Positions 2,640 to 64,000 of a DNA stretch of 64,000 bases are shown piece by piece. Origin of the DNA: Chiloscyllium plagiosum (lineage: Eukaryota); the NCBI RefSeq assembly GCF_004010195.1, contig NC_057758.1:7418630-7482629 (forward strand), in the 5' to 3' direction. The notes beneath the pieces were generated by a model. The model did no database searches. It was not told the origin of the DNA and was given only the letters and a program-made list of their open reading frames with translations. The position numbers and the translations under genes were made by a program. Position 1 is the stretch's first letter, and every line of letters begins with the position of its first letter.

Positions 2640-5220
2640 GTAATGCAATGGGGTTGGGGAAGAGCGCAGCATTACTGATGGAGGAGAATGTCGGAAACAA
2701 GAATGAGCATCTTGAAGGGCCCATTTAGTGAGGTCATATGGAGCGATCTGAGGACGAGGAAAGATGCTGTCACTGTGATGGTGTTGTATGACAGGCCTCC
2801 TAAAAGTCAATGGGAGTAAGAGGAACACATATGCAAGCGGTTCAACAATAGAGTTGTTGTATTGGGCAATTTTAACTTCCCCAATATTGACTAGGACTCT
2901 CTTAGCGCCAGGCGCTGATATGAAATATGTGTATCCAGGAGGTATCCTTAAAAATATGTGCAGGTGTTCCAAGTAGTGAAGGGGCTGTCCCATATCTTAT
3001 ACTGGGGAATGAGCCTGGCTAAGTGATAAAAATATCAGTGAGGGAACATTTTGGAGACATGATCATATATCTACAAGTTCTAAAGTTGCTATGGATAAGG
3101 ATAAGATGCTTTCTCCGTTAAATTGCTAAATTTGTGCAAGTCTAATTACAACAGTATGAGGCAAGAAGTGGAGAAACTTCTCCAAGTGACAGTTTGAGGG
3201 TAAATCGATATCTGACAAGTGGGAATAATGAATGCGTGTTTGGGAATTTGAGCTTTATGGAACTGAAATCCAGTTCGACCTGAGAAGTTGTGGAAAAGAA
3301 CTGAAACAAGTTATTGGAAGGGGTCATAAAAAAGCCTTTGCAAGTAGAATTCAAGACAATGCCCAAGACATGTTATACACAGAGTTGGGGTAAGAGGGTT
3401 ACGAAGGAAAGGGTTGTTCTGCTCAAGAACAAAGGAGGGGAATATGGAGAGGTCGTTGATGAGTACTTTGCATTGGTTTTCACTCAGGAGAAAGACATGG
3501 ATTCTGATAAGATTATCGAGGCACTTGTTGATATTCTGGGGAATGTCAATATTGTTGTGGTGACAGTATTGCATGTTTTGAAACACATTAAGTCCCCAAG
3601 ACTTGATAGAATCTAACTCAGAACACTGAAGGTAGCAAGGGAGGAGATTGCTGGGGCCTTGAGAGAGATTTGTTTTGTATCCCCTTTCAAAACAGACAAA
3701 GAGTCAGAAGACTGGCGAAAAGCCTATGCTGTTCCTTTGTTGAGGAAGCGCAACCCAGTACATGATTGGTCGCTAAATCTTTAATCACTCGGAGGGAAAT
3801 TATTGGCGAAGGTTCTTTGACAGCGGATTTATTCAGATTGAGGGACGAATGGACGTTAGATATAATCAGCTGTCTTTATGCAAGGGAGGCCATGCCTCAC
3901 AAACTTGATTTTTTTGAGGAAGTGACAAAGATGATTACTGAGGGTAGACCAGTAGATATTGTCTGCATGGATTTTACTATAGAATGTCACAAGGCCCCTC
4001 ATGATAACCCCTCATGAGAAGATTGCGTTAAATGGAATCGAGGGCATGTTGGAAAGTTGGATACTTTAAAATTAACTTGATTACAGAAGAGAATTCAGTT
4101 ATGGAGGACTGGTTTTCTCCCTGGAGGTCTGTGACCTGGGGTTCTGTGGGGGTCAGTGCTGAGACATTGGCTGGTTGTTCCTCATTATGGATGAAAATTG
4201 CAGGAGGTCTGACTAGTACGTTTGCAAGGTGTGCGGATAGTAAGGAAGATTACCAAAGGATACAGCAGTATACCGAGCAGTTGGAACATTGAGTCGCAAA
4301 ATGTCAGGTGGAGTTTAATCTGTACAAGTGTGAGGTGATGGATTTTGGGAAGTCAAATGCTGGAGTAAATACAGCACATTGCAGGATTCTGAATTGCATT
4401 GATATCCAGCGGGATCTTGTGGTGCAGAAAAGTGGCAACGCAAGTGAACAAGGTGATAAAGAAGGCCTATGGCATGCTGTCCTTCATCAGTCAGGGCTTT
4501 GAGTTCGCATGTTTCAGTTGTATAAAACTTTAACTAGTCCACCTTTGGATTACTACGTGTAGTGAGATTGTGCAGGCTTTGGAGAGAGGCCAAGAAACGT
4601 TCAACAAGATGTTGTCTGAATTAGAGTAGATTAGCTCAAAGGAAAGGCTGCAAATTGTCTCTCCACCCCGGAGACTCTCTGCCATATTCCTGATGAAGGA
4701 CTTTTGCCTGAAATGTCGATCTTCCTGCTCTTCAGATGCTGCTTGACCTGCTCTGATTTCCCAGCACCACTCTAATCTAGATTCTGATCTCCAGTATCTG
4801 CAGGTCTCACTTTCGCCTGCACAAACTTGCAGTGTATTCACTACAGCGTCAGAATGTGAGGGACAAATTGATATAAACATATAAAATTATGAGAGGAAGA
4901 GATTTGGTAGTTAGCTAATCTTTACTCCACGTGGATGTGTCAAATAATACGGAACAAAGGATTAAGGTGAGAAGATAAGGTATAAAGGAGATGACAACAA
5001 TGTTTTTTTTTAAAAAAAGGTGGTCGGTGCCTGGAACCTAAAACCGGGAAAGGTGGGAAAATCAGATATGATCGCAACAACTAAGAAGCTTTGAACAGAC
5101 ATGTGAAATGGCATGGGATAAAGGGATAGGGATAATGTGCAGGCAGGTAGGATTAGTTTGGATGGACAGCACGACCGGCACAAATGTGCTGGGACAAAGG
5201 GCCTGATCCTTCTGTGTCCT
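2640..5220 (+). mobile_element. Old CR1-type LINE, endonuclease to RT remnants, highly degenerate
   Basis: Remnant motifs GNFNFPNID, EYFALVFTQEKD, KSPRLDRI, FFEEVTKMITEGRPVDIVCMDF and EFNLYKCEVMDFGKSN occur in order. Confidence 0.8.
4660..4820 (+). mobile_element. Solo PLE 3'-tail element with degenerate hammerhead core
   Basis: CTGATGA-AGGAC-TTTT-GCCT-GAAA-T-GTC at 4690-4717, followed by the GATGCTGC.TGACCTGC...CAGTATCTGCAG tail shared with the long PLE copies. Confidence 0.7.
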
Positions 5221-6077
5221 TTAAACAACAAAACATTTCACTGGAGTGTGTGTTACACAGTGGAAAGTAATTGAGAGGCAGAGAGATGATTTCTATAAAA
5301 TAACAAATACTTAAGAGTGAGTTAAAAATTGGAATCTGACTGAGAGTTTCATATTTAACAATTGGCCCACAACCGTAGAGTATTTTTGTTCCACATTCCA
5401 TTTATTCATAAATATACAGTCTGATCACTCTTTCCAAGTGGCTATCAGATAGAAAGTGTCATTGACGGTGCCCCTCTGCTGTTCGAGCCTGTTCGGAACT
5501 GTGCAGTGTTCTCTTGCCCATGCCCCACCCCAGTCTCCTCCCTCTGCGCTGGCTCTCCACTCACTGGTCCAGGAATGAGTTTCTCTTCACTCCACGGACA
5601 TGCAGGAAGATCTTGACTTGATGATCGGCGGGCTTTTTGCGATGTTCTGACATCACAAGGCAACCTGCAGACAGAATACAGAGTGAGTTCCTATACAATC
5701 ACAGGCAGGGAAGGCCAGAGAATGAGAGTGTGTGCGTGAATGACAGAGAGAGAATGTGAGAGTGTGAGGGTGTGTAATGTTTTCGCGCTATAGTCACACA
5801 ACAGTCCGTGCATAAGTATGTATCCACAACTGAAATGTGATAGGTCCCATGTGAATCACATGGTATTTAAGAGGCCCTGTCGCCCATCAAGTTTGTGTCA
5901 GCAAAACAATGCTGCTCCGAGGCAGGGTGGGATGTGTGGGTGGGGGGATGTTGCAGAGCTTGCCAGTGTGAATTGGAGAGGGCAAAAACAACGGGTGGAT
6001 GGTTCTGGGGTTGGGTAGAGCATGAGAATATTAGGGGGATCCAGCACTAGAGCGACTGGGGGGCGGAGCACAGTGTG

Positions 6078-6539
6078 NNNNNNNNNNNNNNNNNNNNNNN
6101 NNNNNNNNNNNNNNNNNNNNNNNNNNNNNNNNNNNNNNNNNNNNNNNNNNNNNNNNNNNNNNNNNNNNNNNNNNNNNNNNNNNNNNNNNNNNNNNNNNNN
6201 NNNNNNNNNNNNNNNNNNNNNNNNNNNNNNNNNNNNNNNNNNNNNNNNNNNNNNNNNNNNNNNNNNNNNNNNNNNNNNNNNNNNNNNNNNNNNNNNNNNN
6301 NNNNNNNNNNNNNNNNNNNNNNNNNNNNNNNNNNNNNNNNNNNNNNNNNNNNNNNNNNNNNNNNNNNNNNNNNNNNNNNNNNNNNNNNNNNNNNNNNNNN
6401 NNNNNNNNNNNNNNNNNNNNNNNNNNNNNNNNNNNNNNNNNNNNNNNNNNNNNNNNNNNNNNNNNNNNNNNNNNNNNNNNNNNNNNNNNNNNNNNNNNNN
6501 NNNNNNNNNNNNNNNNNNNNNNNNNNNNNNNNNNNNNNN
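6078..6539. other. Assembly gap (N run)
   Basis: Run of n characters. Confidence 1.
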
Positions 6540-6573
<34 letters not shown>

Positions 6574-6592
6574 AAGAGAGACAGAGAGAGAC
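6540..6592. repeat. (GATA)n microsatellite grading into GA repeats
   Basis: GATAGATAGATAG... directly after the gap. Confidence 0.95.
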
Positions 6593-7059: not shown

Positions 7060-9520
7060 TACATTCGTCCGTTCCGTCAGTTAGTGCGTCCATTCAGTCT
7101 GTCAATGAGACAGTGTGTCCAGCCAGTCAGTCAGCGCGTGCAGTCAGTCAGTCCGTTCAGTCAGTCATGGTGTCAGTGCATTTATTCAGTGAGTCAGTCA
7201 GTGAGTGCATTCAGTGGGTCAATTCAGTCAGTCAATCAGATAGTGAGTTCATTCAAGAAGCAAATCAGTGCTATCATTCAGCCAGTCACTCCGTTCATTC
7301 AATCAGTCAGCCGTTCAGATCGTATGTTCTCTCAGTGCGTCCATTCAGTCAGTCAGCATGTGCACTCACTCAGTCAGTCAGTACTTTTATTCAGTGAGTC
7401 AGTCAGTCAGTGCGATTATTCAATCAGACATTCAGGGCAGTTCCATTCGGTCAGTCAGTCAGTGCATTCATTTGGTTAGTCAGTCAGTCAGTCACTCTGT
7501 CCATCCGTCCATTTAGTTGGTCAGTCATCGAAACAGTGCATCCGTTCAGTTTGCACGTAATCAGATAGTGCCACCATGCAGTCTGTTATTGCCAGTCGCT
7601 CTATTCACTCATTTAATAACTGACATTAAGTCAGTTAATCAGTCAGTATATCAGTGTGTCCATTCATTCAGTCAGTGAGCAAGTGCGTCCATTGTGTCAG
7701 TCAGTTATTGAGTCAGTGCATCCATTCGGTTAGTCACTCAGTCAGTCCATCAATTCAGCCAATCAGTGTGTCCGTTTAGTCAATCAGTCAGTGCTTCCAC
7801 CCTGTCTGTCAGTCAGTGAGTACGTTCATTCATTCAATCAGTCAGTGCGTCAATTCATTCAATGCGTCAGTCATGATGTCTTAAAATCTTTCAGACAGCC
7901 AGTGTCTCCAGTTAATTTGTCCGACTGTCAGTGTCTCCGTTCACACAATCAGACATTGCATCCATTCAGTGAGTCACTCAGTCGTTCAGTGCGTCTACTC
8001 AGTCAATCCGTCATCAGTGTGTTCATTCGTTCAGACAGTCAGTGGTGTCAGTCACTTCATCCCTTCAGTCAGTCAGTCATTATACCGAATCCGTTAGTCA
8101 GTCACTCAATCATTCAACGGATTCATTCAGTAAGTCAATCAGTTCGTGCGGACAATCAGCCAGTCAGTCAATCAGTCAGTGAGTTTCCATTCAGTCAGTC
8201 AGTCAGTCAGAATGCCCATTCACCCAGCGAGTGCTTCCATTTGGTCAGTCAGTCAGTCAGTGTGTCCATTCAGTCAATCATTCGGTGCGTCAAGTCAGTC
8301 AGTCAGTGGGTCCATTCATTCAATCAATCAGTCACGGCATCTCGTCATCATTCAGGCCATCAGTGCGTCCAGCCAGTCAGTATGACTCTCAGTCCGTTAA
8401 TTTAGTCAGTGCCCATTCACTCAGTCATTCAGTCAGTTCGTCAACTAAGTCAGTCATTCAGTCAGTCTGTCAGTGCATCCATTCACCCAGTCAGTCAGTA
8501 CATTCGTGCTTTCAGTCAGTGCATCCAGTCAGACGGTCAGTTGGTCAGTGCACCCAGTCAGTCAGTCAGACAGTGCATGTGTCCGTTCAGTCAATCAGTG
8601 ATTGAGTTAGTGCGCCCATTGGTTCAGTTAGGCTGTTAGTCAGTCAGTTAGTACGACAATTTAATTAGTCATTTAGTATGTCCACAAAGTCAATCAGTCA
8701 TTGAGTCAGAGCGTTAGTTTTGTCAGTCAGCCGGTCAGTGATTTCATTCAGTCTGTCATTCGGTCAGTGCACACATTCACTCATTCAATCAGTGCATTTA
8801 TTAAGTCCATCAGTCAGTCTCTCTTTGCGTCCATTCAGTAGGTTGGTCAGTTCGTCAGTCAGTCACTCAGTATGTGCATTCATTGAGTCAGTCAGTCATT
8901 TATTTAGTGCACCCATTCGATCAGTCCATTATTCAGTGCGTCAATCCAGTCTGTGACTGCTCATTCAGTATGACATTCACTGCGTCAAATCAGTCCGTCA
9001 GTGCATGCATTCATTCAATCAATCAGTCAGGGAGTCTCGGCGTCTTGTCATCTGTCAGACAGTCAGTACGTCCAGTCAGTCAGTACGATTGTCAGTCCGT
9101 TCATTCAGTCAGTTAGCCCGAGTCCATTCACTCATTCAATCAGGGCGTCTATTAATTTAGCCAGTCAGTCAGGCTGCCAATGCATTCATTCAGTTAGTCA
9201 CTGCCTTTATTCAGTCAGTCAGTCAGTGTGTCTGTGCTGTCAGTCAGTGCGTCCATTCTATTAGTCAGTCAATCTATCCGCGAGTTGGTCCATTCAGTCA
9301 TTCAGTCAGTAAGTCAGAGCGTCCATGCATTCAGTCAGTATATTAATTCAGTCATTCAATCAGCTGGTGCGTCAATTCAGTCGGTTATTGTGTCTGTACA
9401 TTAATTCAGTCAGTCCATGTCTCAGTCTATGCGTCCAGTCAGTATGCCATTCGGTCAGTGCGTAAATTCATTAATTCCGTCAGTGCTTTCATTATGTCTG
9501 TCAGTCAGTCAGTCTGTCAT
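7060..9520. repeat. Degenerate TCAG/TCAT/TCCAT-rich simple-sequence satellite (~2.45 kb)
   Basis: Continuous CAGT/TCAG/CATT tetramer variants with a recurring GTGCGTCCATTCAGTCAGT motif. Confidence 0.92.
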
Positions 9521-10194
9521 TGCATTGATTCATATCCATTTCAAGAATGAATGTGGAATTTACTGAGTTATCGTTACTATCCCAGAAATGCTGATCGACA
9601 AAAACACTTCAAATTCTTGACCGGTATTAATCCCTACAGCTACCTGTAACTCTATCACATTCATCGTCGGACGATCCATGTATTGGTAATAAACGACTCC
9701 TGGACGTATTTTCAATCTTGCCCCTATTGAATCCTTTCACATGAATGCAGTCTCAATTTATGTCAGCAAAGTTGAAATGCTCCCCAACTGCAACATAATC
9801 CTCTCAGACATATTTGCAATTGATTGCATATCTGCTCACGTGTCTCACTTCAACGTTTGGGAGATGTGCTGTCGAACCACAGACATGCATATTCAATTTA
9901 TTTTATTTCTAATCTCTAGTAGTAAACGCAAGCTGTAAGTAATTTCTTGATGTTTGACCGCCCACCCCCCTCGCAGCCAAAGAATGGGATTTTGCCATGG
10001 GTTAAGATATTATGAGAGTTGCTCGACTTCCCATGAAGGAAATGGTACAATGACAAACCACTCCCTTGATTGTACACCATTCATTGCACTAGGATTACAT
10101 AATTGTAAATCATGCTGTTTTCATGACACGTTTTACACTCGAAACTATCTGCCAAACTTTCGTTTGTCTTGTAGAGAGAGGAAACATTTAAACA

Positions 10195-10420
10195 CAAGTA
10201 GAAAGTGTTGCGGAAATTCAGCAGTTCTGACGGAGAAAAAATAAAGATAATGTTTCACTTCAGTAAGTCCACTCCTTTTCTCCAAATGAGGTCTGAAGAA
10301 GAATGACTGGACTTGTATGCTCCTTCGGCTTTGCCTACACAGATTCTGGGCAACCTCCTGAATAGCTCCAGCACCTCTACTCTTTTGTTTCAGAATTCCA
10401 GTATCTGCAGGTCTTACTTT
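10195..10420. mobile_element. Old fold-back PLE-tail-like element, degenerate
   Basis: Tail-like arms in opposite orientation (GAAATTCAGCAGTTCTG... / ...CTCCAGCAC...CCAGTATCTGCAG) surround a TCTGAAGAAG core. Confidence 0.4.
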
Positions 10421-12139: not shown

Positions 12140-12483
12140 CTCGCTCAGTTGGTGTCCTCACAGTGCCAGGGACTCAGGTTTGATTGCAGCCTCGGACATC
12201 TGCTGTGCAGAGTTTGCACGTTCTTCCCCACGCGTCTGTGTGTGTTTCCTTCGGGTGCTCGGGTATACTCCCACAACGCAAAGGTTTGACGTTTAGGTGA
12301 ATTTGACATGCTGCATTGCCCATAGTATTCAGTGATGTGTCGGTTAGGTGCATTAAACAGGAGTAAATGCATAGCAATGGGGTAGGGGAATTGTTCTAAG
12401 TGGGGTCTTCTTCGCAGGGTCAGTCTGGTCTTGTTTGGACAAATGGCCTGTTGTCACACTATAGGGATTCTATGATTCTATGA
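12140..12483 (+). mobile_element. tRNA-derived V-domain SINE (HE1-like)
   Basis: Same head and V-domain as 2073-2340; ends in (TTCTATGA)n. Confidence 0.8.
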
Positions 12484-23027: not shown

Positions 23028-23232
23028 AGGCGAATCTGAGGACAGCAGATTCTGGAGATCAGAGTCTAGATTAGAGTAGTGCTGGAAAAGCACAGCAAGC
23101 CGGGCAACATCTGAGGAGCAGAAAAATCGACGTTTCGGGTAGCGTGTTGACGGGTTCCTGCCCGAAAACTCGAATTTCATGCTCCTCGGATGCTGCCTGA
23201 CCTTCTGTTCTTTTGAAGTACCACTCTAACAT
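23028..23232. mobile_element. Fold-back (head-to-head) PLE-tail element inserted in Gypsy gag
   Basis: AGAGTAGTGCTGGAAAAGCACAGC...CGACGTTTCGGG faces CCCGAAAACTCG...GATGCTGCCTGACC...ACCACTCT. Confidence 0.78.
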
Positions 23233-23934: not shown

Positions 23935-24085
23935 GGGAAAGTGAAGACTGCAGATGCTGGTGAATAGAGTCGGGAGTGTGGTGCTGGAATAAAGCACAGC
24001 AGGAATATGATGAAGGGCTTTACCGAAACGCCCATCTTCCTCCTCCTTTGATGCTCCCTGACCTGCTGTGCTTTTCCAACACTGA
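23935..24085. mobile_element. Fold-back PLE-tail element with degenerate hammerhead core
   Basis: Reverse tail, then ATGATGA-AGGGCTTTACC-GAAAC, then forward tail. Confidence 0.7.
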
Positions 24086-27559: not shown

Positions 27560-27726
27560 ATTTGCTGAAAAATGCTTCACAAGGAGCAGGAGAATCTTCA
27601 GGAATGAAGGCTTAAGCCCGAAACGTCCATTCTCCTGCTCCTTGAATGCTGCCTGACCTGCTACGCTTTTCTATCAACACAATTTTCAGTTCTGATCTCC
27701 TGCATCTGCGGTTCTCACTTTCTCCT
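27560..27726 (+). mobile_element. Solo or partly fold-back PLE-tail element
   Basis: AAGGCTTAAGCCCGAAACGTC followed by the GCTGCCTGACCTGC...CTCACTTTCTCC tail. Confidence 0.75.
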
Positions 27727-29375: not shown

Positions 29376-29555
29376 TGGGGGGAGAGTTTCTATTGTCTTT
29401 GGTGCAACATTCCCTGGCGGAGTGGACTCGATGGGTCGAATGGCCTTTCTTATACTCCTATGGGAAACACGAGCCACTTTTCCCAAAACAGATTTACTCC
29501 TTGATCTCCATCAATTTGCTTTGAAAGTTCCACTCTTTGACAGTGCGAATATACG

Positions 29556-30875
29556 AGTCCACCCCTCTCACCCACTCCAACCTCTCACGCTCACAACGTG
29601 CAGCCCTCCAATCCCTCCGCTTCAACCCCAACCTCACTATCAAACCGGCAAACAAGGGAGGCGCAGTGGTAGTTTTGCACACTGATCTTTACATTGCTGA
29701 GGGTAAACGCCAACTCGCGGACACCTCCTATTCCTGCCCCTTAACCATGACCCGACCTCCCACCACCAAACCATCATCTCCCAGACAATCCATAACTTCA
29801 CCACCCCATGGGATCTCCCATCCGCCGCCTCCAACCTCATAGTCCCACAACCCCGCACCGCCCGTTTCCACCTCCTGCCCAAAATCCACAAACCTGCCAG
29901 CCCCGGCCGACCATTGTCTCAGCCTGCTGCTGCTCCACCGAACTCATCGCTGCATACCTCGACACAGTCCTGTCTCCCTTAGTCCAAGAACTCCCCACCA
30001 ACGTTCGGGACACCACACACGCCCTCCACCTCCTCCATGATTTTTGCATCCCCGGCCACCAACGCCTTATCTTCACCATGGACATCCGGTTCCTAAAGAC
30101 CTCCATCCCCCATTACGAAGGCCTCAAATCCCTCCGCTTCTTCCTTTCCCGCCGACCAACCAGTACCCTTCCACTAACACCCTGCTTCGACTAACTGAAT
30201 TGGTCTTCACGCTGAAAAACTTCTCTTTCCAATCCTCCCACTTCCTCCAAACCAAAGGAGTAGCCATGTGCACCCGCATGTGCCCCAGCTACGCCTGCCT
30301 CTTCGTCGGATATGTGGAACAGTCCACCTTCCGCAGCTACACTGGCACCAAACCGCACCTTTTCCTCCGCTACATTGATGACTGTATCGGCGCTACCTCG
30401 TGCTCCCACGAGGAGGTTCATCAATTCATCCACTTTACTGACACCTTCCACCCCGACCTCAAATTTACCTGGAACGTCTCAGGCTCCTCCCTCCACTTCC
30501 TAGACCTCTCCATTTCTATCTCAGGGGACCGACTCAACACGGACATTTGCTACTAATCAACCGACTCCAACAACTTCCTATATTACACCTCCTGCCACCC
30601 TGCCCCCTGTAAAGACGCCATCCCACATTCCCAATTCCTCCCAGGAGGACCGACTCCAATACCGAACAACACAGATGACCTCCTACTTCACAGACCACAA
30701 TTTCCCCTCAGACGTGGTTGGCGATGCTCTCTACCTCATCTCCTCCACTTCCCGTTCCTCCGCACTTGAACCCCGCCCCTCCAATTTCCACCAGGACAGA
30801 ACCCCACTGGTCCTCATCTACCACCCCACCAACCTCCAGAGACATGGTCCCATCCTTTGTCATTTCCACCACCTC
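29556..30875 (+). mobile_element. PLE reverse transcriptase region (second family), frameshifted
   Basis: LTIKPANKGGAVVV, LLPKIHKP, RLIFTMDI..L.TSIPH, FLQTKGVAMCTRMCPSYACLF and FLRYIDDCIG. Confidence 0.92.
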
Positions 30876-30904
30876 CAGACAGACCTGTTTTCCTGTATTT
30901 GGCG

Positions 30905-31135
30905 CTGACTAATCTATACATCTCTGTAGACTATGGGCAATTTAGCCAAATCACCTGACATGCACATCTTTGCATTGTGGGAGATAACAGGAGCACCCAG
31001 AGGAAAAACACAGAGATGTGGCAAGAATATGCAAAATCCACACAGACAGTCGCCCAAGTCTACGACTGAACCCGTATGCCTTGTACCGTGATGCAGCACA
31101 GTTAAAGACTGAACCACCTTGCTGCCCCAAACGAC
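30905..31135 (-). mobile_element. V-domain SINE (HE1-like)
   Basis: Reverse complement of the head and V-domain seen at 2073-2340. Confidence 0.8.
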
Positions 31136-31424
31136 AGTGCTGCTGTTCATTATATCTTCTATTCACTTAATGAAGCCTGTCCCAACGTGCTCTGGTTCTT
31201 TGGTCACAGTAGGAAATAGTTTACCCGCTCTTCTCAGCTGCCCTAACGAATTCCAACCACTTCAATCACGAGCAAATCTCTCCACACCCTACCCACTCTC
31301 AATCCTTTGCATATCTACGCAGGAACTTCCAAAGTGCTCCAACCTCCGCAGTTGAAGGTTATGCAACTATGCAATCAAAGCACAATTGCGTTTGTTGTCT
31401 CCAGAATATTCATCTCCACTGAAT

Positions 31425-31635
31425 GTCAGTGCTAGAAGAGCGCTGTTCTGACAGAGGGTCAGTTCTGAGGGAGTGCCGGCCTGTTAGAGCGTCACTGCTG
31501 AGGGATCTACACACTATTAGAGGGTTCTTGCTTTGGGGTTCCTGCAATATTGGAATGTTTGTGCTGAAGACATGGTACAATTGGAAGTATCAGTGCTGAG
31601 GGAGCAGGGTCTGCCCAATTGCGAGCACTGAGACA
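31425..31635 (-). repeat. Degenerate reverse-orientation copies of the 33-bp minisatellite unit
   Basis: AGAGGGTCAGTTCTGAGGGAGTGCC and TCAGTGCTGAGGGAGC are the reverse complement of the 54070-57020 unit. Confidence 0.65.
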
Positions 31636-31854
31636 GCTCCCCACGACTGAAATATCAAAATACAACGTTGAGACGAGTTAGAGATAAATTAAGTGATTTT
31701 AATTATTAAAACAGATCGAAGAAAATGCCATGTTATGAAGACTCAGACTATCTCTCCGTAGTTGGACAAGTTGTTGGAGTGTTGACGTCACAGTCGACAG
31801 TAACAACTCGCCAGTTGTTTTCATAATTTGACCACGCAGCAGTTATAACCCCAG

Positions 31855-32148
31855 NNNNNNNNNNNNNNNNNNNNNNNNNNNNNNNNNNNNNNNNNNNNNN
31901 NNNNNNNNNNNNNNNNNNNNNNNNNNNNNNNNNNNNNNNNNNNNNNNNNNNNNNNNNNNNNNNNNNNNNNNNNNNNNNNNNNNNNNNNNNNNNNNNNNNN
32001 NNNNNNNNNNNNNNNNNNNNNNNNNNNNNNNNNNNNNNNNNNNNNNNNNNNNNNNNNNNNNNNNNNNNNNNNNNNNNNNNNNNNNNNNNNNNNNNNNNNN
32101 NNNNNNNNNNNNNNNNNNNNNNNNNNNNNNNNNNNNNNNNNNNNNNNA
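31855..32148. other. Assembly gap (N run)
   Basis: Run of n characters. Confidence 1.
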
Positions 32149-32848
32149 ACCGCAAGAAATACAAAAATTGCCTCCAGACCTCCCCCTCACTTCCCTCCAA
32201 GGCCACAAGGGATCCTTCCATATCCGTCACAAATTCACCTGCACCTCCACACACATCATTTACTTCATCCGGTGCACCAGATGTGGCCTCCTCTATATTG
32301 GGGAGACATGCCGCCTACTTGTGGAACGTTTCAGGGAACACCTATGGGACCCCCGCACCAATCAACCCAACCACTCCGTGGCGGAACACTTTAACTTCCC
32401 TTCCACTCCGCCAAGGACGTACTGGTCCTTGACCTCCTCCATCGCCAGCCCATGGCAACACGACGCCTGGAGGAAGAGCGCCTCATCTTCCACCTTTGAA
32501 ACCTCCAACCACAAGGGATGAATTCAGATGTCTTCAGCTTCCTCATTTCCTCTCCCCTCCACATTATCTCAGTCCCAACCCTCGGACTCAGCACTGCCTT
32601 CTTGACCTGCAACCTTCTTCCCGATCTCTCCGCCCCAACCCTCTCCGGCCTATCACCCTCACCTTAACCTCCTTCCACCTACCGCATTCCCAACGCCCCT
32701 CCCCCAAGTCCCTCCTCCCTACCTTTTAACTTAGTCTGCTTGGCACACCTTCCTCATTCCTGAAGAAGGGGTAATGCCCGAAAAGTCGATTCTTCTGCTC
32801 CTTCGATGCTGCCTGACCTGTTGCGCTTTTCCAGCAAAACATTTTAAA
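32149..32848 (+). mobile_element. PLE 3' end: GIY-YIG endonuclease and hammerhead-like tail
   Basis: FTCTSTHIIYFIRCTRCGLLYIGETCRLLVERFREH; CTGAAGA-AGGG-GTAAT-GCCC-GAAA-AGTC at 32760-32787. Confidence 0.92.
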
Positions 32849-35934: not shown

Positions 35935-36190
35935 CCATGTCCTGAAGCAGATTCGCTACCACACCCGCATCATCTTCCTCAGTGCCTGCCTACTGATTCC
36001 GTATGGACTCCTGATACCGCACAGTGTCTGAACACTTCAACTCCCCCTCTCATTCCACCAAGGACAAGTACGTCCTGGGTCTCCTCCATCGCAAAACCCT
36101 TACCACCCAACTCTTGGATGAAGAATGCCACATCTTCCGCCTTGGAGCCTACAACCACACAGACTTAATGTGGGATTTCACCAGTTTCCC
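35935..36190 (+). mobile_element. Short PLE fragments
   Basis: SEHFNSPSHSTKDKYVLGLLH..LDEECHIFRLG.LQP, matching the GIY-YIG C-terminus of the other copies. Confidence 0.7.
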
Positions 36191-37184
36191 CTTCCATTAG
36201 GTTATCTTAGTCCAAGCACCACACTCTCAATTCTGACCTCCAACATTTGCTATTCTCACTTTCTCCTGGGTGGATGTTATATTCGCATGATGTTACCAAA
36301 TATGTACTGTATCACAAAACAAGGCATCTCACAACCTGATATTAATTTAATGCCTCATCACATTGTCAGCTCTTGCCTGTAAATCACCTTTTGTTGATTG
36401 TAAACATTATGAAATGGCATCATTCAGTTAACCAGACAAATGAGTGCGCCAAACTGAGTCAGTCAATGATGACAAACAAACGCAGACATTGCGAGAAAAG
36501 TTCAGTGGGTCTGGCAGCATCGGTGGAGAGATATCAAAATGTATTTTTCGGGTCAAGGGGCCCTTCCTCTGAACAGTTACCAATGTTACTGTTTTTGTAC
36601 ACAGCGGGAGACCTGGGATTCACTTTCTAGAAACTGTTCCCATCCCTGGATTCATTTCACGAACGTGCAATTCTTGCAAGTCAGCAATTTAATCCTGAAT
36701 GAGCAAAGAACAGAAAATCAATAAAATGCTTCCAGATGATTTCCCACAGGAGGATGGTTCAGTCTGGGTGAAGCTCCATCTTCATTCAGTGAAAGATGAG
36801 GAGCAGCAGCACCTTCTCTGGGCACCAATCAGCAGCTACATTGTCCAACTTCTGCATTCAGACCTTCGGAGTGCGCTGATTGGCTGCAGGACCAGCTTAC
36901 GTCCGGTCGTCCATGGATTCCCATTTGCCAACGGCGATGCGAGTCAATGGAGGGCTCAAACTGCCCTCCACATGCGCGATTCTGATGTTTAGCGGAATGA
37001 ATATGTTTATTTGTTTGTAAATAAATCAATACATCGAGCTTCTCCATCCCAGTGCATCCCCATTATTCCTTTGGGCAACTGGGACTTTGCAACCTGCCAA
37101 CGCTCTGTGTACAATCATCCAGATCAATGAACGCAGGAGCAATCGCGATTGAAAGTAATGGATGCTCAGGGTTTTTCAGAATGG

Positions 37185-41364: not shown

Positions 41365-42390
41365 TAACTTTGTCGAAGAGTGTGGTGCTGCCAAAACCCC
41401 AGCCAGTCAGGCTGCGTCCGAGGAGCAGGAGAATCGATGTTTCGGGCATGAGTCCTTCATCAGGAATGAGGCTAGTGGACCAAAGGGGCAGAGAGATAAA
41501 TGGGAGTTCTATGTGTCTGGGTGGGTGGGGGGAGGTAGCTCAGAGTGCGATAGGCGAAGTGGGAGTGAAAACGAAAGGTCAGGGGGGATTGGGGCCGATT
41601 GGTGGGAAAGAAGATGGACAGGTGGGACAGGTCAAGAAAGCGGTGAAGAGTTGGAGGGATGGATCGGGGATAAGGTGGGGGAGGGAAAATAAGGGAACTG
41701 GTGAAATCCACATTGATCCCCTGTGGTTGTGGTGTCTCAATGTGGAAAATGAGGCATTCTTCCTCCAGGTGTCTGGCGGTTAGAGTTTGGCGATGGAGGA
41801 GGCCTAGGACTTACATGTCTTTGGCGGAGTGAGTGTAGAAGTTAAAGTGTTAGACTACGAAGTGGTGTGGTTGGTTGATGCGGGTGTCCCAGAGATGTTC
41901 TCTGAAACCTTTCGCAAGTTGGTGTCCTGTCTCCCCAAAGTAGAGGAGACCACATCAGGAGCAATGGACATGAACATGTGTCGAAGTACAGGTAAATCTC
42001 TGTCAGATGTGAAAGGATCCTTCTGGACCTTCGACGGAGGTAAGCAAGGAGGTGTGTGTGCAGTATGTGCAATTCTTGCCTTGGCTGGGGAATGTGCCTC
42101 GGCTGCAGGGTGGGATGGTGGGGTGGGGAGTGCTTGGACCTAACAAGTGGGTCGCGGAGGGAATGGTCTTTACAGAAAATAAAAGGAGTGGGCAAAATAT
42201 CCCAGGCGGTAGGGTCTGTGTGAAGGTGGTGGAAATGGTGGAGATGTATCTGGAGGTTGGTGAGCTGGAAGGTGAGGGCAGGCGTGGTTCTGTTGTTGCA
42301 GGTGGAAGGGTAGTGTTCAAGGGCAGAGATGTGGGAAGTGGATGAAATGCACTAGAGGGCATTGTCGGCCACGTAGGAGGGGAAATTGTG
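41365..42390 (-). mobile_element. PLE 3' fragment with degenerate hammerhead tail
   Basis: KDHSLRDPLVRS..., ERFQRT; minus-strand CTGATGA-AGGAC-TCAT-GCCC-GAAAC-ATC near 41436-41463. Confidence 0.82.
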
Positions 42391-42394
42391 GTCT

Positions 42395-43062
42395 TCCTCC
42401 TCGCAGCATAACTTGGCTATCCTTATCCTCAATGTGCCGACAATTATGGCAAGCATACCCTCAGCATTTTTCCCAACTACCTTATTTACCTGCGCTGACA
42501 CATTCAGTGATCGATGGACTCACATACCCAGACCCCTCCGCAAATCCATACTCCGAAGGATTCAGATATCCACTCTATAATTTCCACCTGCAGTTGACAT
42601 TTCAAAATGCATCACAACACATTTCACAGGATTAAACACCATCTTCCATTTTTTCTGACGGTGCCTCCAACTGTTCGGTATCCTCCAGTATCCTCTGACA
42701 ATCCTCCTCACGATCTGCAGCTTCACCAATCTTTGTATCGTTTGCATACTTACTAATTAGACAAGCTACATTTCCCTCCAAATCATTCACATCGATCAAG
42801 AATAGCAGAGGTCTCATCGCCAAACCCTGTGGAATACCACCAGTTAAAACTATCCATTGTAAAAAAAGCATTCTTCCATCGCTACCCTGCCTCCTCCAAC
42901 CAAGGCAGAGCTGTATCTTTATGCCAGCACTCTCCAATTCCATGTGATGCCAACTTTTGTACCAGTCTGCCATAAGGGACCTTATCAAAGGCTTTACCGA
43001 ACACCATTTGAACAACGTCAATTACCTTTCCCTCATCAATCATCTTCATCACCGACTCAAAA
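42395..43062 (-). mobile_element. CR1-type LINE RT fragment (continues at 43420-43443 and 46991-47920)
   Basis: KVIDVVQMVFGKAFDKVPYGRLVQK and GIPQGLAMRPLLFLIDVNDLE..ISKYANDTKIG. Confidence 0.88.
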
Positions 43063-43420: not shown

Positions 43421-43443
43421 AAACTTGATTCATGTTAGCGAGG

Positions 43444-45617
43444 AGAAAGTGAGGACTGCACATGCTGGAGATCAGAGCTGAATAATGTGTTGCTGAAAAA
43501 GCGCAACAGGTCAGGCAGCATCAAAGGAGCAGGAGAATCGACGTTTCGGGCATAAGCCCTTCTTCAGGAATGAGGAGGGTGTGCCAAGCAGGCTAAGGTA
43601 AAAGGTAGGGAGGAGGGACTTGGGGGAGGGGCGTTGGGAATGCGATATGTGGAAGGACGTTAAGGTGAGGATGATAGGACAGAGAGGGGGTGGGGGCGGA
43701 GAGGTCGGGAAGGACATTGCAGGACAAGACGGCGGTGCTGAGTCCGATGGTTTGGACTAAGAAAAGGTGGTGGGAGAGCAAATGAGGAAGCTGGAGAAAT
43801 CTGCATTCATCTCTTGTGGTTGGAGGTTTCCTAGGTGGAAGATGAGGTACTCTTCCTCCAGGCGTCGTGTTGCCATGATCTGGCGATGGAGGAGGCCAAG
43901 GACCTGCATGTTCTTGCCGGAGTCGGAGGGGAAGTCAAAGAGTTCAGTCAGGGGCCGGTTGGGTTGGTTGGTGCGGGTGTCCCAGAGGTGTTCTCTGAAA
44001 CGTTCCGCAAGTAGGTGGTCTGTCTCGTCAATGTAGAGGAGCCAATTCGGGTGCAGTGGATGCAGTAAATGATGTGTGTGGAGGTGCATGTGAATTTGTG
44101 ACAGATATGTAATGATTCCTTGGGGCCTTGGAGGGAAGTGAGGGGGGAGGTGTGGGCACAAGGTTTGCATTTCTTGCATTTGCAGGGGAAGGTGCCAGGA
44201 GTGGAGGTTGGGATGGCGGGGGTGTGCACCTGACGAGGGAGTCGCGGAGGGAGAGGTCCTTCGGGAACGCTGATAAGGGAGGGGATGGAAATATATCCCT
44301 GGTGGTGGGGTCTGTTTGGAGGTGGCGGAAATGACGAAGAAAGATACGATGTATCTGGAGATTGGTGATGTGGTCGGTGAGGACCAGTGGGGTTCTGTCC
44401 TGGTGGCGTTTGGAGGGGCGTGGATCAAGGGCGGAAGTGCGAAATGTGCAGGAGATGCGGTGGAGGCATCATCAACCACCTCTGAGGGGAAATTGCGGTC
44501 TTTGAAGAAGGAGTTGTTCGGTATTTTAATTGGTCCTCCTGGGAGCAGGTGCGGCAGAGGCGAAGGAATTCTGAATATGGGATTGCGTTTTTAAAGGGGG
44601 CAGGGAGGGAGGAGGTGTAATCTACGTAGCTGTGTGAGTCGATCAGTTTATAGTAAACGTCCGTGTTGAGTCGGTCGTCCAAGATAGAAATGGAGAGGTC
44701 TAGAAAGGAGAGGGCGGAGTCTGAGACTGTCCAGGTAAATTTGAGGTCGGTGTGGAAGGTGTTAGTAAAGTGGATGACCTGTTCAACCTCCTCGTGGGAG
44801 CACGAGGTCGCGCCAATACAGTCATCGAGGTAGCGGAGGAAAAGGCGGGGGATGGTGTCAGTGCAGCTGCAGAAGATGGACTGTTCCACATATACGACGA
44901 AGAGGCAGGTATAGCTGTGGCCCATGCGTGTTCGCATGTCTACTCCTTTGGTTTGGAGGAAGTGGGAGGATTGGAAAGAGAAGTTGTTCAGAGTGAGGAC
45001 CAGTTTAGTCAGTCGACGGAGGGTGTCAGTGGAAGGCTACTGATTAGTTCAACGGACTTTGTGTCCTTCGTGATGGGGGATGGAGGTGAAGATAAGTCGT
45101 TGGGGGCCGGGGGAGCGAAAATCATGGAGGAGGTGGAGGGCATGTGTGGTGTCCCGAAAGTTGGTGGGGAGTTAATGGACTAAGAGGGAACAAGACCGTG
45201 TTGAGGTATGCGGAGATGAGTTCGGTGGGTCAGGAGCAGGCTGTGACAATGGGTCGGCCGGGGTATTCAGGTTTGTAGATTTTGGGCGGGAGATAGAAAC
45301 GGGCTGTGCGTTGTGGGACTATGAGGTTGGACGCGGTGAATGGGAGATTCCCTGAGGTGATGAGGTTATGAATGGTCTGGGAGATGATGGTTTGGTGGTG
45401 CGAGGTGGGGTCATGGTCAAGTGGACAGTAGAAGGAGGTGTCCACGAGCTGGCATTTAGCCTCAGCAATGTAAAGTTCGGTGCGTCAAACTACCGCCGTG
45501 CCTCCCTTGTCTGTCGGTTTGATAGTGAGGTTGGGGTTGGAGCGGAGGGAGTGGAGGGCTGCACGTTGTGAGGGTGAGAGGTTGGAGTGGGTGAGAGGGG
45601 TGGACAGGTTGAGGCGG
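43444..45617 (-). mobile_element. PLE, RT plus GIY-YIG plus tail (long arm of an inverted double element)
   Basis: LTIKPTDKGGTAVV, RFYLPPKIYKPEYPGRPIV, FLRYLDDCIG and CKCKKCKPC..FTCTSTHIIYCIHC. Confidence 0.93.
43536..43571 (-). ncRNA. Minimal hammerhead ribozyme-like motif in the PLE tail
   Basis: Minus strand ATTC-CTGAAGA-A-GGGC-TTAT-GCCC-GAAAC-GTC-GATT: perfect core and 4-bp stem II; stem I is short with one mismatch. Confidence 0.65.
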
Positions 45618-46990
45618 ACAACGTCATGCTCCAACGAGGAGGTTGAACAGTTCATCCACATTATTTGCACCTTCCATCCCGACCACAAATTTTCCTGGAC
45701 CGTCTCAGACTCCTCCCTCCCCTTCCTAGACCTCTCCATTTCTATCTTGGACGACCGACTCACACGGTCATTTACTGTAAACCGACCGACTCCCACAGCT
45801 ACCTAGATTACACCTCCTCCACCCTGCCCCCTGTAAAAACGCCATCCCATATTCAGAATTCCTTCGCCTCCGCCGCATCTGCTCCCAGGACAACCAATTC
45901 AAATACCGTACAACCCAGATGGCCTCCTTTCTCAAATACCGCAATTTCCCCTCAGGGGTGGTTGACGATGCTCTCCACCGCATCTCCGCCACTTCCCGCT
46001 CCTCCGCCCTTGAACCCCGCCCCTCCAATCGCCACCAGGACAGAATCCCACTGGTCCTCACCTCCCCACCCCACTAAATTCCAGATACATCGCATCATCC
46101 TTCGTCATTTCCGCCACCTCCAAACAGACCCCACCACCAAGGATATATTTCCCTCACCTCCCCTATCAGTATTCCGGAAAGACCACTCCCTCCGTGACTC
46201 CCTCATTCGGTGCACACCCCCCAACTCAACGTCCACTCCCAGCACCTTCCCCTGCAAACGCAAGAAATGCAAAACGTGCGCGCACACCTCCCCCTCACTT
46301 CTCCCCAAGGCCCCAAGTTATCCTAACATATCTGTCACAAATTCACATGCACCTCCACACACATCATTTACTGCATCCGCTGCACACGATGTGGCCTCCT
46401 CTACATTGGGCAGACAGGCCACCTACTTGCGGAACGTTTCAGAGAACACCTCAGGGACACCCGCACCAACCAATCCAACAGACCGGTGGCTAACCACTTT
46501 AATCCCCCGTCCCACTCCGCCAAGGACATGCACGTCCTTGACCTCCTTCATCTCCAGACCATAGCAACCCGACGCCTGGAGTAAGAGCGCCTCACCTTCT
46601 GCCTAGGATCCCTCCAACTTCAAGGGATGAATGCAGATTTCTCCAGCTTACTCATTGTCCCCCCCCCCCCCACCCCTTCTCCCCCCCCCCCCCCCCACCT
46701 TTTCTCAGTCCCAACCCTCGGACTCAGCACCGACTTCTTTACCTGCAATCTTCTTTCCGAGCTCTCCGCCCCCACCCCCTCTCCGGCCTATCACCCTCAC
46801 CTTAACCTCCTTCCACCTATCGCATTCCCAACACCCCTCCGCCAAGTCCCTCCTCCCACCTTTTATCTTAGCCTGCTTGGCACACCCTCCTCATGCATGA
46901 AGAATAGCTTATGCCCGAAACGTCGATTCTCATGCTCCTTTGATGCTACCTGACCTGCTGCGCTTTTCCAGCAACACATTTTTCAGCTCT
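45618..46990 (+). mobile_element. PLE 3' half (short arm of the inverted double element)
   Basis: TSCSNEEVEQF, YCKPTDSHSYLDYTSS, CKRKKCKTC and IIYCIRCTRCGLLYIGQTG, then the same tail. Confidence 0.93.
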
Positions 46991-49242: not shown

Positions 49243-49340
49243 TAAGTTGAAAATGTGTTGCTGGAAAAGCGCAGCAGGTCAGGCAGCATCCAGGGAACAG
49301 GAGAATCCACGTTTCAGGCACAAGCCCTTCTTCAGGAAGC
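49243..49340 (-). mobile_element. Solo PLE-tail fragment with hammerhead-like core
   Basis: Minus strand CTGAAGA-AGGGC-TTGT-GCCT-GAAAC-GTG plus the tail. Confidence 0.75.
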
Positions 49341-52505: not shown

Positions 52506-52571
52506 TAAGCAACGATCAGCCCAGACACGGGACTGTAATTATTACATCCTTGCCAACACCAGCACGACACT

Positions 52572-59152: not shown

Positions 59153-59228
59153 CGAGCAAATCTGCGAGTATTTCATTATGTTTCAGACGTCTGTCTGAAA
59201 CATAATGAAATACTCGCAGATTTGCTCG
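59153..59228. repeat. Perfect inverted repeat, 36-bp arms, 4-nt spacer
   Basis: CGAGCAAATCTGCGAGTATTTCATTATGTTTCAGAC-GTCT-GTCTGAAACATAATGAAATACTCGCAGATTTGCTCG. Confidence 0.97.
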
Positions 59229-59318
59229 TCTGCGTTCAAGATGGTGGATGCGCATTTTGGAGAGTGGCGATGAGTTCCTCACCATGGAAACCATTGCATC
59301 TAGTCTCCTGTATCAATG

Positions 59319-59446
59319 ATTCCTGAACAAGGGCTCATGTCTGAAACGTCGATTCTCCTGCTCCTTGGATGTTGCCAGACCTGTTGCGCTTTTTCAGCAA
59401 CACTTTTTCAGCTCTGTTCTCCAGCATCTGCAGTCCTCACTTTCTC
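59319..59446 (+). mobile_element. Solo PLE-tail element with 12-bp TSD
   Basis: Starts ATTC-CTGAACA-AGGGC-TCAT-GTCT-GAAAC-GTC; flanked by CCTGTATCAATG at 59307-59318 and 59447-59458. Confidence 0.85.
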
Positions 59447-59931
59447 CCTGTATCAATGGCAATAAGATGATGAATAAAGTTCAACGGCCAGTTGATCTTT
59501 TCTTTGTTGAATCATTTAGCCTTGCTGACAGAAAACTATGTTGTTGATTGCCATGTGAGTAATAGTATCCTGCAGCACACAAGCTTAACCCATCGTTTTT
59601 CTTCCTCGTACGCACATTACAAACAAGATTGCAGGACGGGTGTTATCTCGAGGCCTTGTCCTCTTTGCTCTAGGATGTTCGAATTTTCCTGCTCTTTTGC
59701 CATTAGCCAGACAAGTTCATATAGGATGTGCCTTGCTGCTGTTGTGGATTTGGGTTATGCCTGCTCATTTCTTTCAGGCCTGCCAAAAGTTTCTGTTTGA
59801 CCTGGTGCCACTTTTCTTTATAAGTTCCTCTGTTACGCCATGTGGATTGGTCACGACACCTTAATATGTCTTGCTTCTCGGTTTTCTTTCCAATCGATGT
59901 TCTGCCAGCCACTCTTTCAATTCGCATCTCA

Positions 59932-60837
59932 TCATTTCAACAGCTCTGAGTTGTTTCTTTTTGAAGTTATTTTCATAATTAATGTAACCGGATATTTCAT
60001 CATGCTCTTCAACTGTTCTCTGAACTTGGAATTTGTCACAATATAAATTAATGTGTTTGTGCTGCAAGTTAAGTTTCGCAACATATATCCAACGTTTTTA
60101 AATGTATATTCAGAATTGTCATCGAGGAGTTCATTAACAAGAAAAATGAACAAAATATACGGAAACCACAAAGTATAAAACTGCTCGATATTGTGAGGAG
60201 AAAAATCACAGAATTCCGTCTGCTCTCCATCTCTGGATCATTCTGTCCCTTGCTATGACCCTTCACTCCCTTACGGACTCGACTAGCCTCTAATATTTGC
60301 CTAACTATCAGAGCATTGAGCAACAGAATTAAACCAAATGGTAACAATGGCGTTAAAATCTTATCAACCATTCTAAATCCAATCCATCTCGGATCAGTGA
60401 AATAGCTTCGTTTATTAGAACAATACAGAGGAACATTGTTTATTCGTTTCGTTTTGGCTTAAATCGAAAGTAAATGGGGATGTTTTTTAAACTAAAAAAT
60501 AAACTGACTGTTGCAAGAACTACTTTTGCAGTTTTCCTGGTGCAATATTTAGATTTAAGCCTCTCGCAACAAATTGCAATAAATCGATCAAAATTAAAGG
60601 CGACAGTGAAACAGACTGAACAGTCCATTGCTAATCGAGCCAGGAGGTAGTTAACTTTACACACAGCAGTAAGTTTCAGGAGAGGAAACGGGAAATAGTA
60701 CCAATTGATTCGTAAATGCATGTCCTCAGTGCCAATCGTCAGTAGATCCGCCATTGCCATGGCCACCATGTAACGAGTGGTGCAGTAAAAGATCCCACAC
60801 TTGCCCTGGGATAGGATGACACTTGCCACGAGATTTG
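59932..60837 (-). pseudogene. GPR139-like class A GPCR, exon 2 (TM1 end to C-terminus), two frameshifts
   Basis: Acceptor CTTTCTGTTACAG, then (A)NLVASVILSQGKCG..RYMVAMAMADLL..DCSVCFTVAFNFDRFIAICC..TPLLPFGLILLLNALIVR..DPEMESRRNS..CSTNTLIYIVTNSKFREQL; frameshifts near 60450 and 60175. Confidence 0.88.
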
Positions 60838-61235
60838 CTGTAACAGAAAGTCGGCAGAAAGGTGCTCAATTTTGTTTATATTCGTGTGGCGATAGTAAGC
60901 ACCGAGACTTGTTTGGAAACATGACCATCCGCCTTTTTCACTGTTTAAACCATAACTAAGCCAAGGCACTTAATTGCGGCTGCATTTACTTTTTTTCATA
61001 ACGTAGAACTGGTGATTTGAACGAATTTACTGATATGAAGGTCTGAATATTCTTATGTCCAAAGAATGATTGAAAAAGTACGGAGGCTGCTTGGCACATG
61101 AAGGCTGAGCTGACCCTCGGAAGAATATACCAACCGGAGCACGCATCCCCATAAACTGACGAGAATTTTCTATGCCAATCTGGTAATCTCGCAATTCCCA
61201 TGACAAATCCACCGAGCATGCACGTCCCTGAACAC

Positions 61236-61865
61236 TCAGGCTCAGTAGTTAGCACTGCTGTCTCAAAGCGCCAGGTCAGGTCACACGAGACAGTCTTGAG
61301 CGCAGACAATGATCCAATTATCTGAGCAGTTCCTACCTTGCAGAACGTTTTTCATTTCCAATTTCCTCATTCAAGTCTGTTCTCTGTGTTTAGCACAGCA
61401 CCAGAGACCCGGGTTTGATTCCAACCTCGGGCGATTGTCTGTGTGGACTTTGCACATTCTCCCCTTGTCTGTATGGGTTTCCTCTGGGTGTTCCGGTTTC
61501 CTCCTCCAGTCCAAAGAAGTGCAGGTTTGGATGAATTGGCCATGATCACTTGCCGATAGTGATCACGTATGTGCGCCTTAGGTGCATTAGTCAGGGCGAA
61601 ATATAGAATAATAGGAGAGGGTATGGGTCTGATGGGTGAAGCTTTGAGGGTCAGTTTTGACTTGTTGAGCCAAAGGGCCTCTTTCCACACTGTCAGGAAT
61701 CTAAGGTGCTCGTTGTTATGGTCAATCCTACTAACATGCACATCTCTGGACCATGGGAGGAGATTGAAGACCCGGCGGAAACCCATGCAGATCTTTGTAA
61801 ACTGCACACAGACAGTGACCCCAAGGCTGGAATCGCACCTGGGTCCCTACCGCTGTGCTAACCCC
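61236..61865 (+). mobile_element. V-domain SINE (head split by a ~120-bp insert) followed by a partial opposite-strand SINE; intronic
   Basis: GGCTCAGTAGTTAGCACTGCTG at 61239, body resumes at ~61394, and a reversed V-domain piece lies at ~61715-61865. Confidence 0.75.
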
Positions 61866-63264: not shown

Positions 63265-63331
63265 CAGGAATACTAATAATAGTAAGGATCGGATAAAGTA
63301 TTTGACTGACAACTCGTACAGTACTATGCAT
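63265..63331 (-). pseudogene. GPR139-like GPCR exon 1 (start codon and TM1 N-half)
   Basis: ATG at 63331 gives MHSTVRVVSQILYPILTIISIP plus one G, then donor GTAAGT; the phase-1 join to exon 2 restores GCA-AAT-CTC-GTG in frame. Confidence 0.82.
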
Positions 63332-63592
63332 TTTCTCTGCGAAATTTCTGTGTTGTTTTGTACTGCAGACTGTTTTCCAAGTCCAACTCTGAAATGTTCC
63401 ATACCAGAGCATTCATTTTATACTTTCAGCGGCATCCATTGGGACACGGAAGTGTTTTGTTTTTCTCATTTGGTAAATTTTGAGTAAACAGATTACAACA
63501 TGCGTGACATCCCCTGTTGATGAAAAACACAGGGTGTTGAGATTTAATTAGAGCCTGAAACACTCCAAATGGCCAAGTCTGATCAGTTTAAA

Positions 63593-63795
63593 GTCGATAG
63601 TGTGGTGCTGGAAAAGCACAACAGGTCAGACAGCATCCCAGGAGCAGGAAAATCGACAGTTCGGGCAAAAGCCCTTCATCAGATTCCTGCTCAAAACGTC
63701 GATCTTCCTCTTCCTCTGTGCTGCCTGAACCGCTTTGTTTTTCCAACACCACATTCGTGACCCGACTCACCAGCATCTGCAGACTTCACTTTCTC
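63593..63795. mobile_element. Fold-back PLE-tail element with 14-bp TSD
   Basis: Inverted arms around the minus-strand motif CTGATGA-AGGGC-TTTT-GCCC-GAAC; flanked by CTGATCAGTTTAAA at 63579-63592 and 63796-63809. Confidence 0.88.
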
Positions 63796-64000
63796 CTGAT
63801 CAGTTTAAAATATCCTCACACTTGTAAACTGCAAAACTACAACATGAGTTCAAGATCTGTATTTTATATTGTTCTAGTGCTGGATCTAACGAATCCAGTT
63901 AAACAAATTAGAACCTCAAGATAAGCACATTAAGATATTCATAGCCCAGCAAGTGACTTTTCACCCTGTACTGTCATTCACAGCTCTCTGCGGGTTTCAC

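Follow-up and report, generated by a model that had tools for sequence, protein, structure and literature searches.

The short copies of a Penelope-like element (PLE) tail that are scattered through a 64,000-nucleotide stretch of the Chiloscyllium plagiosum genome (contig NC_057758.1, positions 7,418,630 to 7,482,629; hereafter the window) share a nearly fixed 5′ edge, which lies 31 nucleotides upstream of the predicted cut site of the minimal hammerhead ribozyme within the tail. We read these stubs as insertions, with target-site duplications (TSDs) on either side, of the terminal tail of a PLE that we assume to be of the Neptune type, likely made as run-off cDNAs by internal priming on the copy of the tail at the 5′ end of the element's transcript, and we would give this reading a probability of roughly 0.55. 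Eleven insertions in the window, which is repeat-rich animal DNA, carry the tail: three solos (4686, 49245 and 59319), four fold-backs in which two tails face each other (23028, 23935, 27580 and 63593) and four long remnants, one of them an inverted pair (Table 1). Together the seven short insertions amount to about 1060 bp, or 1.7% of the window.

The tail was recovered by BLAST and profile searches at all 11 places where a preliminary description of this DNA had listed it. The profile search of the window gave 15 strong matches (E 4e-39 to 1e-8), a match of E 0.1 for the short 27580 arm and four weak matches to older relatives (E 1e-6 to 1e-3), and the reversed window, used as a null, gave no match below E 0.9. 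No locus turned up when viral, metagenome and prokaryote contigs were scanned for the pattern. Of the solos listed earlier, those at 4660, 49243 and 59319 stand, the first with its real start at 4686, while the one at 27560 is in fact a fold-back with a 17-nt inverted arm. The four older and more diverged relatives (36489-36569 on the minus strand, 10366-10420, 25761-25801 and 422-462) were excluded from the end counts; that at 36489-36569 apparently also begins just before a decayed CTGA core.

Judged by their sequence, the long copies are endonuclease-bearing (EN+) PLEs, in which a reverse transcriptase (RT) is followed by a C-terminal GIY-YIG domain. A tblastn comparison of the long copies with a 762-aa relative found RT, a CX4CxxC linker and GIY-YIG in that order, PF01541 (GIY-YIG) scored above cutoff at 32192-32395 and 46330-46575, and the linker reads CKRKKCKTC in the open reading frame (ORF) 45647-46564 and CKCKKCKPC in ORF 43948-44424. 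Every long copy is broken, and Pfam missed the RT in the broken ORFs of the window; the best protein relatives of the RT remnant are in Chiloscyllium, Rhincodon, Stegostoma and rays (28 matches), which marks the DNA as shark-type. The same tail ends these RT/GIY-YIG copies, and the earlier proposal that the short forms are PLE-made insertions holds. A CX2-5CxxC linker between RT and EN is described as a mark of the Neptune and Nematis clades (PMC8557442; published sources are represented here and below by excerpts), so the linker of the long copies places them in one of these clades, and the choice of Neptune over Nematis is assumed from the vertebrate distribution (bioRxiv 10.64898/2026.07.22.740005). 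The 41375-42426 remnant represents a second subfamily, at 67-69% to the first.

We number the tail from the predicted cleavage base C17 (position 0; window 43540, minus strand), which puts C3 of CTGA at -27. On this scale, two of the solos start at -31 and the third at -30, with two subfamilies represented, and 7 of 16 arms begin within -31 to -23; the interval from -32 to about -220 contains the end of no copy in the window, and the TSDs of the solos at 59319 and 49243 abut the -31/-30 edge. Under a null of exponential truncation with a mean of 60-500 nt, the probability of three solos starting within 2 nt is 6e-4 to 1e-5, and that of 7 of 16 arms falling in a 9-nt window is 0.018 to 5e-6. 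The 5′ ends are non-random and mostly do not lie at the predicted cut site. Position -31 is the A of TCATTC, the sole TCAKTY in the 325-nt reference (background 0.003 per site), and TCAKTY with its A at -31 is also present in the long copies 32760 and 41436 despite their otherwise different upstream sequence. We take TCAKTY to be an initiator consensus, and the -31 edge likely marks the start of the copied RNA. A splice-acceptor origin of the edge was rejected, there being no AG before -31. Plain random 5′ truncation, or solo pseudo-long terminal repeats (pLTRs) of the kind for which recombination or deletion has been proposed (PMC3846280), might be suspected at the three of seven short insertions where no TSD was found; the clustering of ends in the window and in reads, the empty interval upstream of -32 and the TSDs that abut the edge contradict such an origin and leave it hardly credible.

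The same edge recurs in public data. Four public runs (X21, X1, X15 and X10, the three edge-positive ones coming from two organisms) were compared with positions 43421-44020; X21, picked by its species label, is a raw RNA run from a poly(A) single-cell library. Loose ends at 43571, which is position -31, rank among the top in X21 (224 reads), X1 (429 contigs, plus 354 at 43570) and X15 (118), and their flank agreement is 0.32-0.39, which means that many different loci end there. Depth in X21 drops 8.7-fold, from 2140 at 43523 to 246 at 43578, and lies at 33-80 over 43781-44020, depth ratios not being equal to copy numbers. No step accompanies a good splice acceptor at -52 (246 versus 230). Two further sets of loose ends were set aside: a peak at 43562 (-22), which is probably clipping at the variable N7 base, as the X1 consensus continues like the element, and peaks at 43484-43487, which are subfamily and indel effects.

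Downstream, the 3′ ends fall into two groups, at +97 to +99 and at +51 to +66, mostly 33-37 bp apart. The tail length of about 130 bp given earlier fits the first group and not the second, to which belong 32760, 41436, 46897, 49243 and the short arms of the palindromes. All five inverted pairs have exactly one long-tail end, so that the 33-37-bp extension is one-sided, and their other end is short, except that the short arm of 27560 ends at +17. This is the pattern published for PLEs, an inverted truncated copy with a tail of 30-40 bp at one end only (PMC8557442; PMC3846280). The 43441-46990 pair, 3.5 kb long and with the CX4CxxC linker and GIY-YIG in its arms, is built to the same plan, head to head between TSDs, and its junction and the motif are 1.3-2 kb apart; inversion therefore needs no ribozyme at the junction. 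The centres of the 23935, 27580 and 63593 fold-backs still hold bases -31 to -25, and the centres of the fold-backs all differ. TSDs of 11-17 bp flank 5 of the 11 insertions; the exact duplications already reported at 59319 (12 bp) and 63593 (14 bp) were confirmed, and those at 49243, 27560 and the 43441-46990 pair had been missed. As a chance control, 300 random site pairs gave an exact repeat of at least 12 twice and of at least 10 seven times. At four long ends that bear TSDs the duplication starts with CT or CCT, the last bases of the element (in register in three, one base off at 59447), an overlap that reflects either primer-template microhomology or an endonuclease preference.

These end patterns can be set beside what is published on PLE replication. 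Transcription of PLEs (Penelope, Chlamys) is driven by an internal promoter and begins within the upstream pLTR (PMC2377424, PMC8557442). The Anolis PLE protein has been shown in vitro to nick both strands of the target and to prime at both nicks; its internal priming takes place at two neighbouring sites, which delimit the tail, and insertion does not depend on ribozyme cleavage (PMC11167929). In the run-off model a transcript that starts at A(-31) would have a copy of the tail as its 5′ terminus. If this copy is primed at +62 or +99, synthesis would run off after about 95 or 130 nt and yield a solo; priming on the 3′ copy would yield the long copies, randomly truncated; and with priming at both nicks the product would be two head-to-head arms, one long-tailed and the other short-tailed, with a centre eroded as the arms are joined by trimming and microhomology. 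Self-priming fold-back, as proposed in PMC3846280, is an alternative for the inverted pairs. A bolder version, which we advance only tentatively and consider doubtful, is that a fixed strong-stop cDNA of 95/130 bp, comprising promoter plus hammerhead and primed on the 5′ pLTR, has become the main product of the PLE in sharks. If so, each stub would record a transcription start and two priming sites, and in fold-backs with an arm that ends at +1 we would have the first trace, in genomic DNA, of PLE hammerhead cleavage in vivo.

A number of observations weigh against the run-off reading. The initiator match was spotted only after the edge was known, and the Penelope downstream element RGACGTGY is matched at 5 of 8 positions and 2 nt off (by inspection against PMC2377424). 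The window holds no full-length or tandem copy, and hence no 5′ tail copy was observed in it, nor does it hold a long copy of the oldest subfamily. As for the reads, the depth step is inflated by diverged subfamilies with less than 80% likeness upstream; 43571 is not among the six loose-end positions listed for X10, a run in which some loose ends are uncounted; and the 24 loose-end positions listed over the four runs are followed by 1468 more. No transcript start was seen, as X21 lists no place where many molecules begin or end, its library being unsuited to showing one, and 94% of its placed reads continue into unlike sequence on both strands, which is host read-through and thus says nothing on a dedicated transcript. 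The tail tree has no starred branch and shows a mild grouping of its short labels, a value as low arising in 20 of 500 shuffles. Lastly, predicted helix I of the hammerhead likewise has -31 as its first base, and the edge could accordingly stem from an RNA fold or protein footprint there, by RT drop-off or by microhomology-guided repair at ATTC, on ordinary copies primed at the 3′ end and with no transcript start involved. In line with such an origin, the pairs are kept in 90% of cells, the ATTC at -31 to -28 recurs at +2 to +5, and most PLE insertions are 5′-truncated (PMC8557442). However, an enzyme running 3′ to 5′ on the RNA would be expected to halt on reaching the motif from its 3′ side (+4) and not once it has passed through, fold prediction gives helix I a pairing probability of 0.001 or less in the monomer, where only helix II is stable (0.97-0.98), and the folding of the tail is unremarkable (z -0.3 to -1.2), so that we regard this origin as unlikely.

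The tree of window tails, which leaves out the fragment 36215 and the 17-nt 27580 arm, intermixes short and long copies with weak support. One branch unites three short and three long tails (support 91/90, below the tool's star threshold), 0% of bootstrap trees cleanly split short from long, and the short solos are 86-91% identical to the long copy 43540/32760. A separate non-autonomous ribozyme-bearing family, one of the two options offered in the preliminary description, is not supported by these comparisons. A few short copies could nevertheless act as masters in the manner of short interspersed nuclear elements (SINEs): read-through, or an internal promoter of their own, would supply their transcripts, PLE protein would move them in trans, and the edge would simply be inherited. 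Short insertions do outnumber long ones (7 versus 4), and the 8.7-fold depth step, the mild clustering of short labels, the position of both inferred priming sites inside one 130-nt unit and the proposal of PLE-derived retrozymes (bioRxiv 10.64898/2026.07.22.740005) all lean the same way. So do rare head-to-tail joints of the 131-bp unit (43572 to 43440, two contigs in X1), which amount to retrozyme-like tandem dimers and could form an active dimeric hammerhead. Masters fit poorly with an identical edge in at least two subfamilies, with short tails adjoining long ones in the tree, with fold-back centres that all differ, with the lack of a Pol III A/B box in the tail or a SINE head in Rfam, and with the state of the hammerhead in the short arms described below. 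We think masters rather improbable as the source of the stubs; they are compatible with the run-off model, and the two can coexist.

The hammerhead core itself is mostly decayed. The motif earlier quoted as common to the tails (CTGANGA-A-GGGC to GTC) is intact in 1 of 13 arms, that at 43540, where the type I order of CUGANGA, helix II, GAAA and NUH is found, and in 0 of 9 short arms; CTGANGA is kept in 6 of the 13. Across 10 copies 87% of the helix-pair cells are paired, compared with 6-46% when the helices are slid, and 0 pairs of helix I or II are changed on both sides; Rfam gave no hammerhead match at E up to 1. Decayed cores without helix covariation are expected of dead copies. On one reading of the preliminary description, ribozyme self-cleavage would make the RNA ends from which both solo ends and inversion junctions derive. 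The left arm of 27560 does end at +1 (ambiguous to +3), an opposite-strand joint 43537/43571 occurs in X1 (4 contigs), X10 (2) and X15 (1), and other joints, whose kind is not stated, place one side at 43537-43540 (0 to +3) or at +14. Yet cleaved RNA would begin at +1 and lack the core, whereas the solos, with starts at -31/-30, still contain it; among 11 short arms one has its start at 0 to +3, and no loose end at 43539-43540 appears among the 24 listed. Of the opposite-strand joints, all four that are listed have one side at the shared edge (43562-43572) and the other at +3, +17, +18 or +63. Other second-arm ends lie at +14, +17/18 and +63, and since +18 is also a GAT, microhomology explains such ends equally well. 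The distant junction of the 43441-46990 pair argues the same way, and in Anolis mutants of the hammerhead ribozyme (HHR) insertion is normal, with no reads that stop at the cut (PMC11167929). That cleavage makes the ends in general is very unlikely: it cannot account for the solos and may explain a minority of second arms. Of the claim that the motif defines the junction there survives the non-randomness of the ends, with a minority of second arms at 0 to +3, and in window and reads alike the main boundary is at -31, the front edge of helix I, not at GTC. The ribozyme would be mostly a passenger, which may set the end of some second arms.

Table 1. Tail-bearing insertions and related features of the window (arm limits numbered from the predicted cleavage base; empty cells, nothing reported).
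Feature	Position	Strand	Extent and remarks	TSD
Solo tail	4686..4818	+	-31 to +99; older subfamily (TCTAATCTAG type)	not found
Fold-back	23028..23232		left arm 23028-23141 minus (-12 to +99), right arm 23145-23232 plus (about -26 to +60)	not found
Fold-back	23935..24081		left arm minus (+30 to +97, or -31..-25 joined to +33 via CCTG microhomology), right plus (-26 to +51); inside older Poseidon-type PLE fragment	not found (no long TSD)
Fold-back	27580..27726		inverted +1..+17, inverted -23..-31, then sense arm about -23 to +99	27565-27579 / 27725-27739, 15 bp, 1 mismatch
Long broken PLE	29546..32845	+	RT 29546-30884, interruption and N gap, GIY-YIG 32192-32395 (PF01541, 25.3 bits), tail end about +58	not found
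Old endonuclease fragment	36016..36267	+	internal deletion, joined to tail +46..+99	not found
Long PLE remnant, second subfamily	41375..42426	-	short tail; TCATTCC kept at -33..-27	not found
Long head-to-head pair	43441..46990		left minus 43441-45605 (tail +99), right plus 45621-46990 (tail +66)	43433-43443 / 46991-47001, 11 bp exact, 14 with 1 mismatch
Intact minimal hammerhead core	43540..43567	-	CTGAAGA, 4-bp helix II, GAAAC-GTC; predicted cut after 43540	
Initiator-like TCATTC	43568..43573	-	A at 43571 (-31), where short copies have their common 5′ edge and predicted helix I begins	
Solo tail	49245..49338	-	-30 to +64; 5 extra bases at 5′ junction	49230-49246 / 49344-49360, 17 bp, 1 mismatch
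Solo tail	59319..59447	+	-31 to +98; core G8 mutated	59307-59318 / 59447-59458, exact 12 bp
Fold-back	63593..63797		left arm minus (-27 to about +62), right plus (about -17, or -31 with internal deletion, to +99)	63579-63592 / 63796-63809, exact 14 bp

The window also holds a second PLE family at 17944-19550, with its RT part on the minus strand (18092-18718) head to head with a GIY-YIG end on the plus strand, which we take from the resemblance of its motifs to be Poseidon-like. It ends in a minimal hammerhead of its own (19476-19509, with a longer helix II), its tail has no short copies in the window, and a paralog at 23786-24409 is split by the 23935 fold-back. A dispersed 300-bp repeat (2085-2353, 12159-12472, 30909-31116, 37178-37456, 52205-52507 and 61394-61703), one copy of which interrupts the 29546 PLE, is probably a tRNA-derived SINE family, to judge by a weak tRNA match at 52572-52646. 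Two self-complementary palindromes are unrelated to the tail, at 21253-21391 (139 bp, 88%; a weak Rfam match to a microRNA family, below threshold) and at 59153-59228 (76 bp, 95%), and large degenerate tandem arrays, TCAG-based or with units of about 31 bp and of 33 bp, occupy 7060-9530, 50790-51500 and 54016-57030. A broken intronless gene for a 7-transmembrane receptor (59932-60865, minus strand; Pfam 7tm_1, two frames) ends about 500 bp from the 59319 solo.

What is at stake in these stubs is the PLE replication cycle and the role of the hammerhead in it. Should the edge be the transcript start, the stub junctions would give a large read-out of transcription start, priming start and the use of cleaved RNA as template, and would show SINE-like units arising from PLEs without a new promoter; should it not be, the stubs are an abundant but ordinary case of described PLE insertion forms. 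Most of these forms are known, since solo and opposite-strand minimal hammerhead copies, inverted pLTR insertions and PLE-derived retrozymes have already been described, and the fixed 5′ edge is the notable part. Our literature searches found no report of such an edge or of the shark family, Repbase, Arkhipova 2006 and Dalle Nogare 2002, which may describe such short units, lying outside their scope.

The minimal hammerheads of metazoan PLE pLTRs are mostly single motifs ascribed to truncated PLEs, with pairs 100-700 bp apart on opposite strands (PMC4209133). They resemble the tail of the window in their type I minimal core without helix III, the unpaired base before helix II and the short helix I, and differ from its 4-bp helix II; the excerpts of that source contain neither shark data nor a fixed solo 5′ edge. 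Non-LTR retrozymes, reported in one chondrichthyan, are likewise non-coding, HHR-bearing, related to PLE pLTRs and accompanied by dispersed monomer derivatives (PMC7229834; bioRxiv 10.64898/2026.07.22.740005). What defines them is a head-to-tail arrangement of tandem units whose HHRs are intact; the window has no such units, its copies being solo or head to head. The Anolis Poseidon PLE shares the two priming sites that bracket the tail and the nicking and extension of both strands; it belongs to another clade, its ORF starts in helix II, it primes without target homology, in contrast to the window TSDs that begin with the CT ending the element, and run-off stubs are not discussed in the excerpts of its description (PMC11167929). 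Also comparable are the published EN+ PLE insertions, with head-to-head inverted ends, a tail at one end, TSDs (8-10 bp in the rotifer versus 11-17 bp in the window), palindromic junctions and solo pLTRs (PMC3846280, PMC8557442), compared with which whole insertions in the window shrink to 95-205 bp, form the majority and start at a single base.

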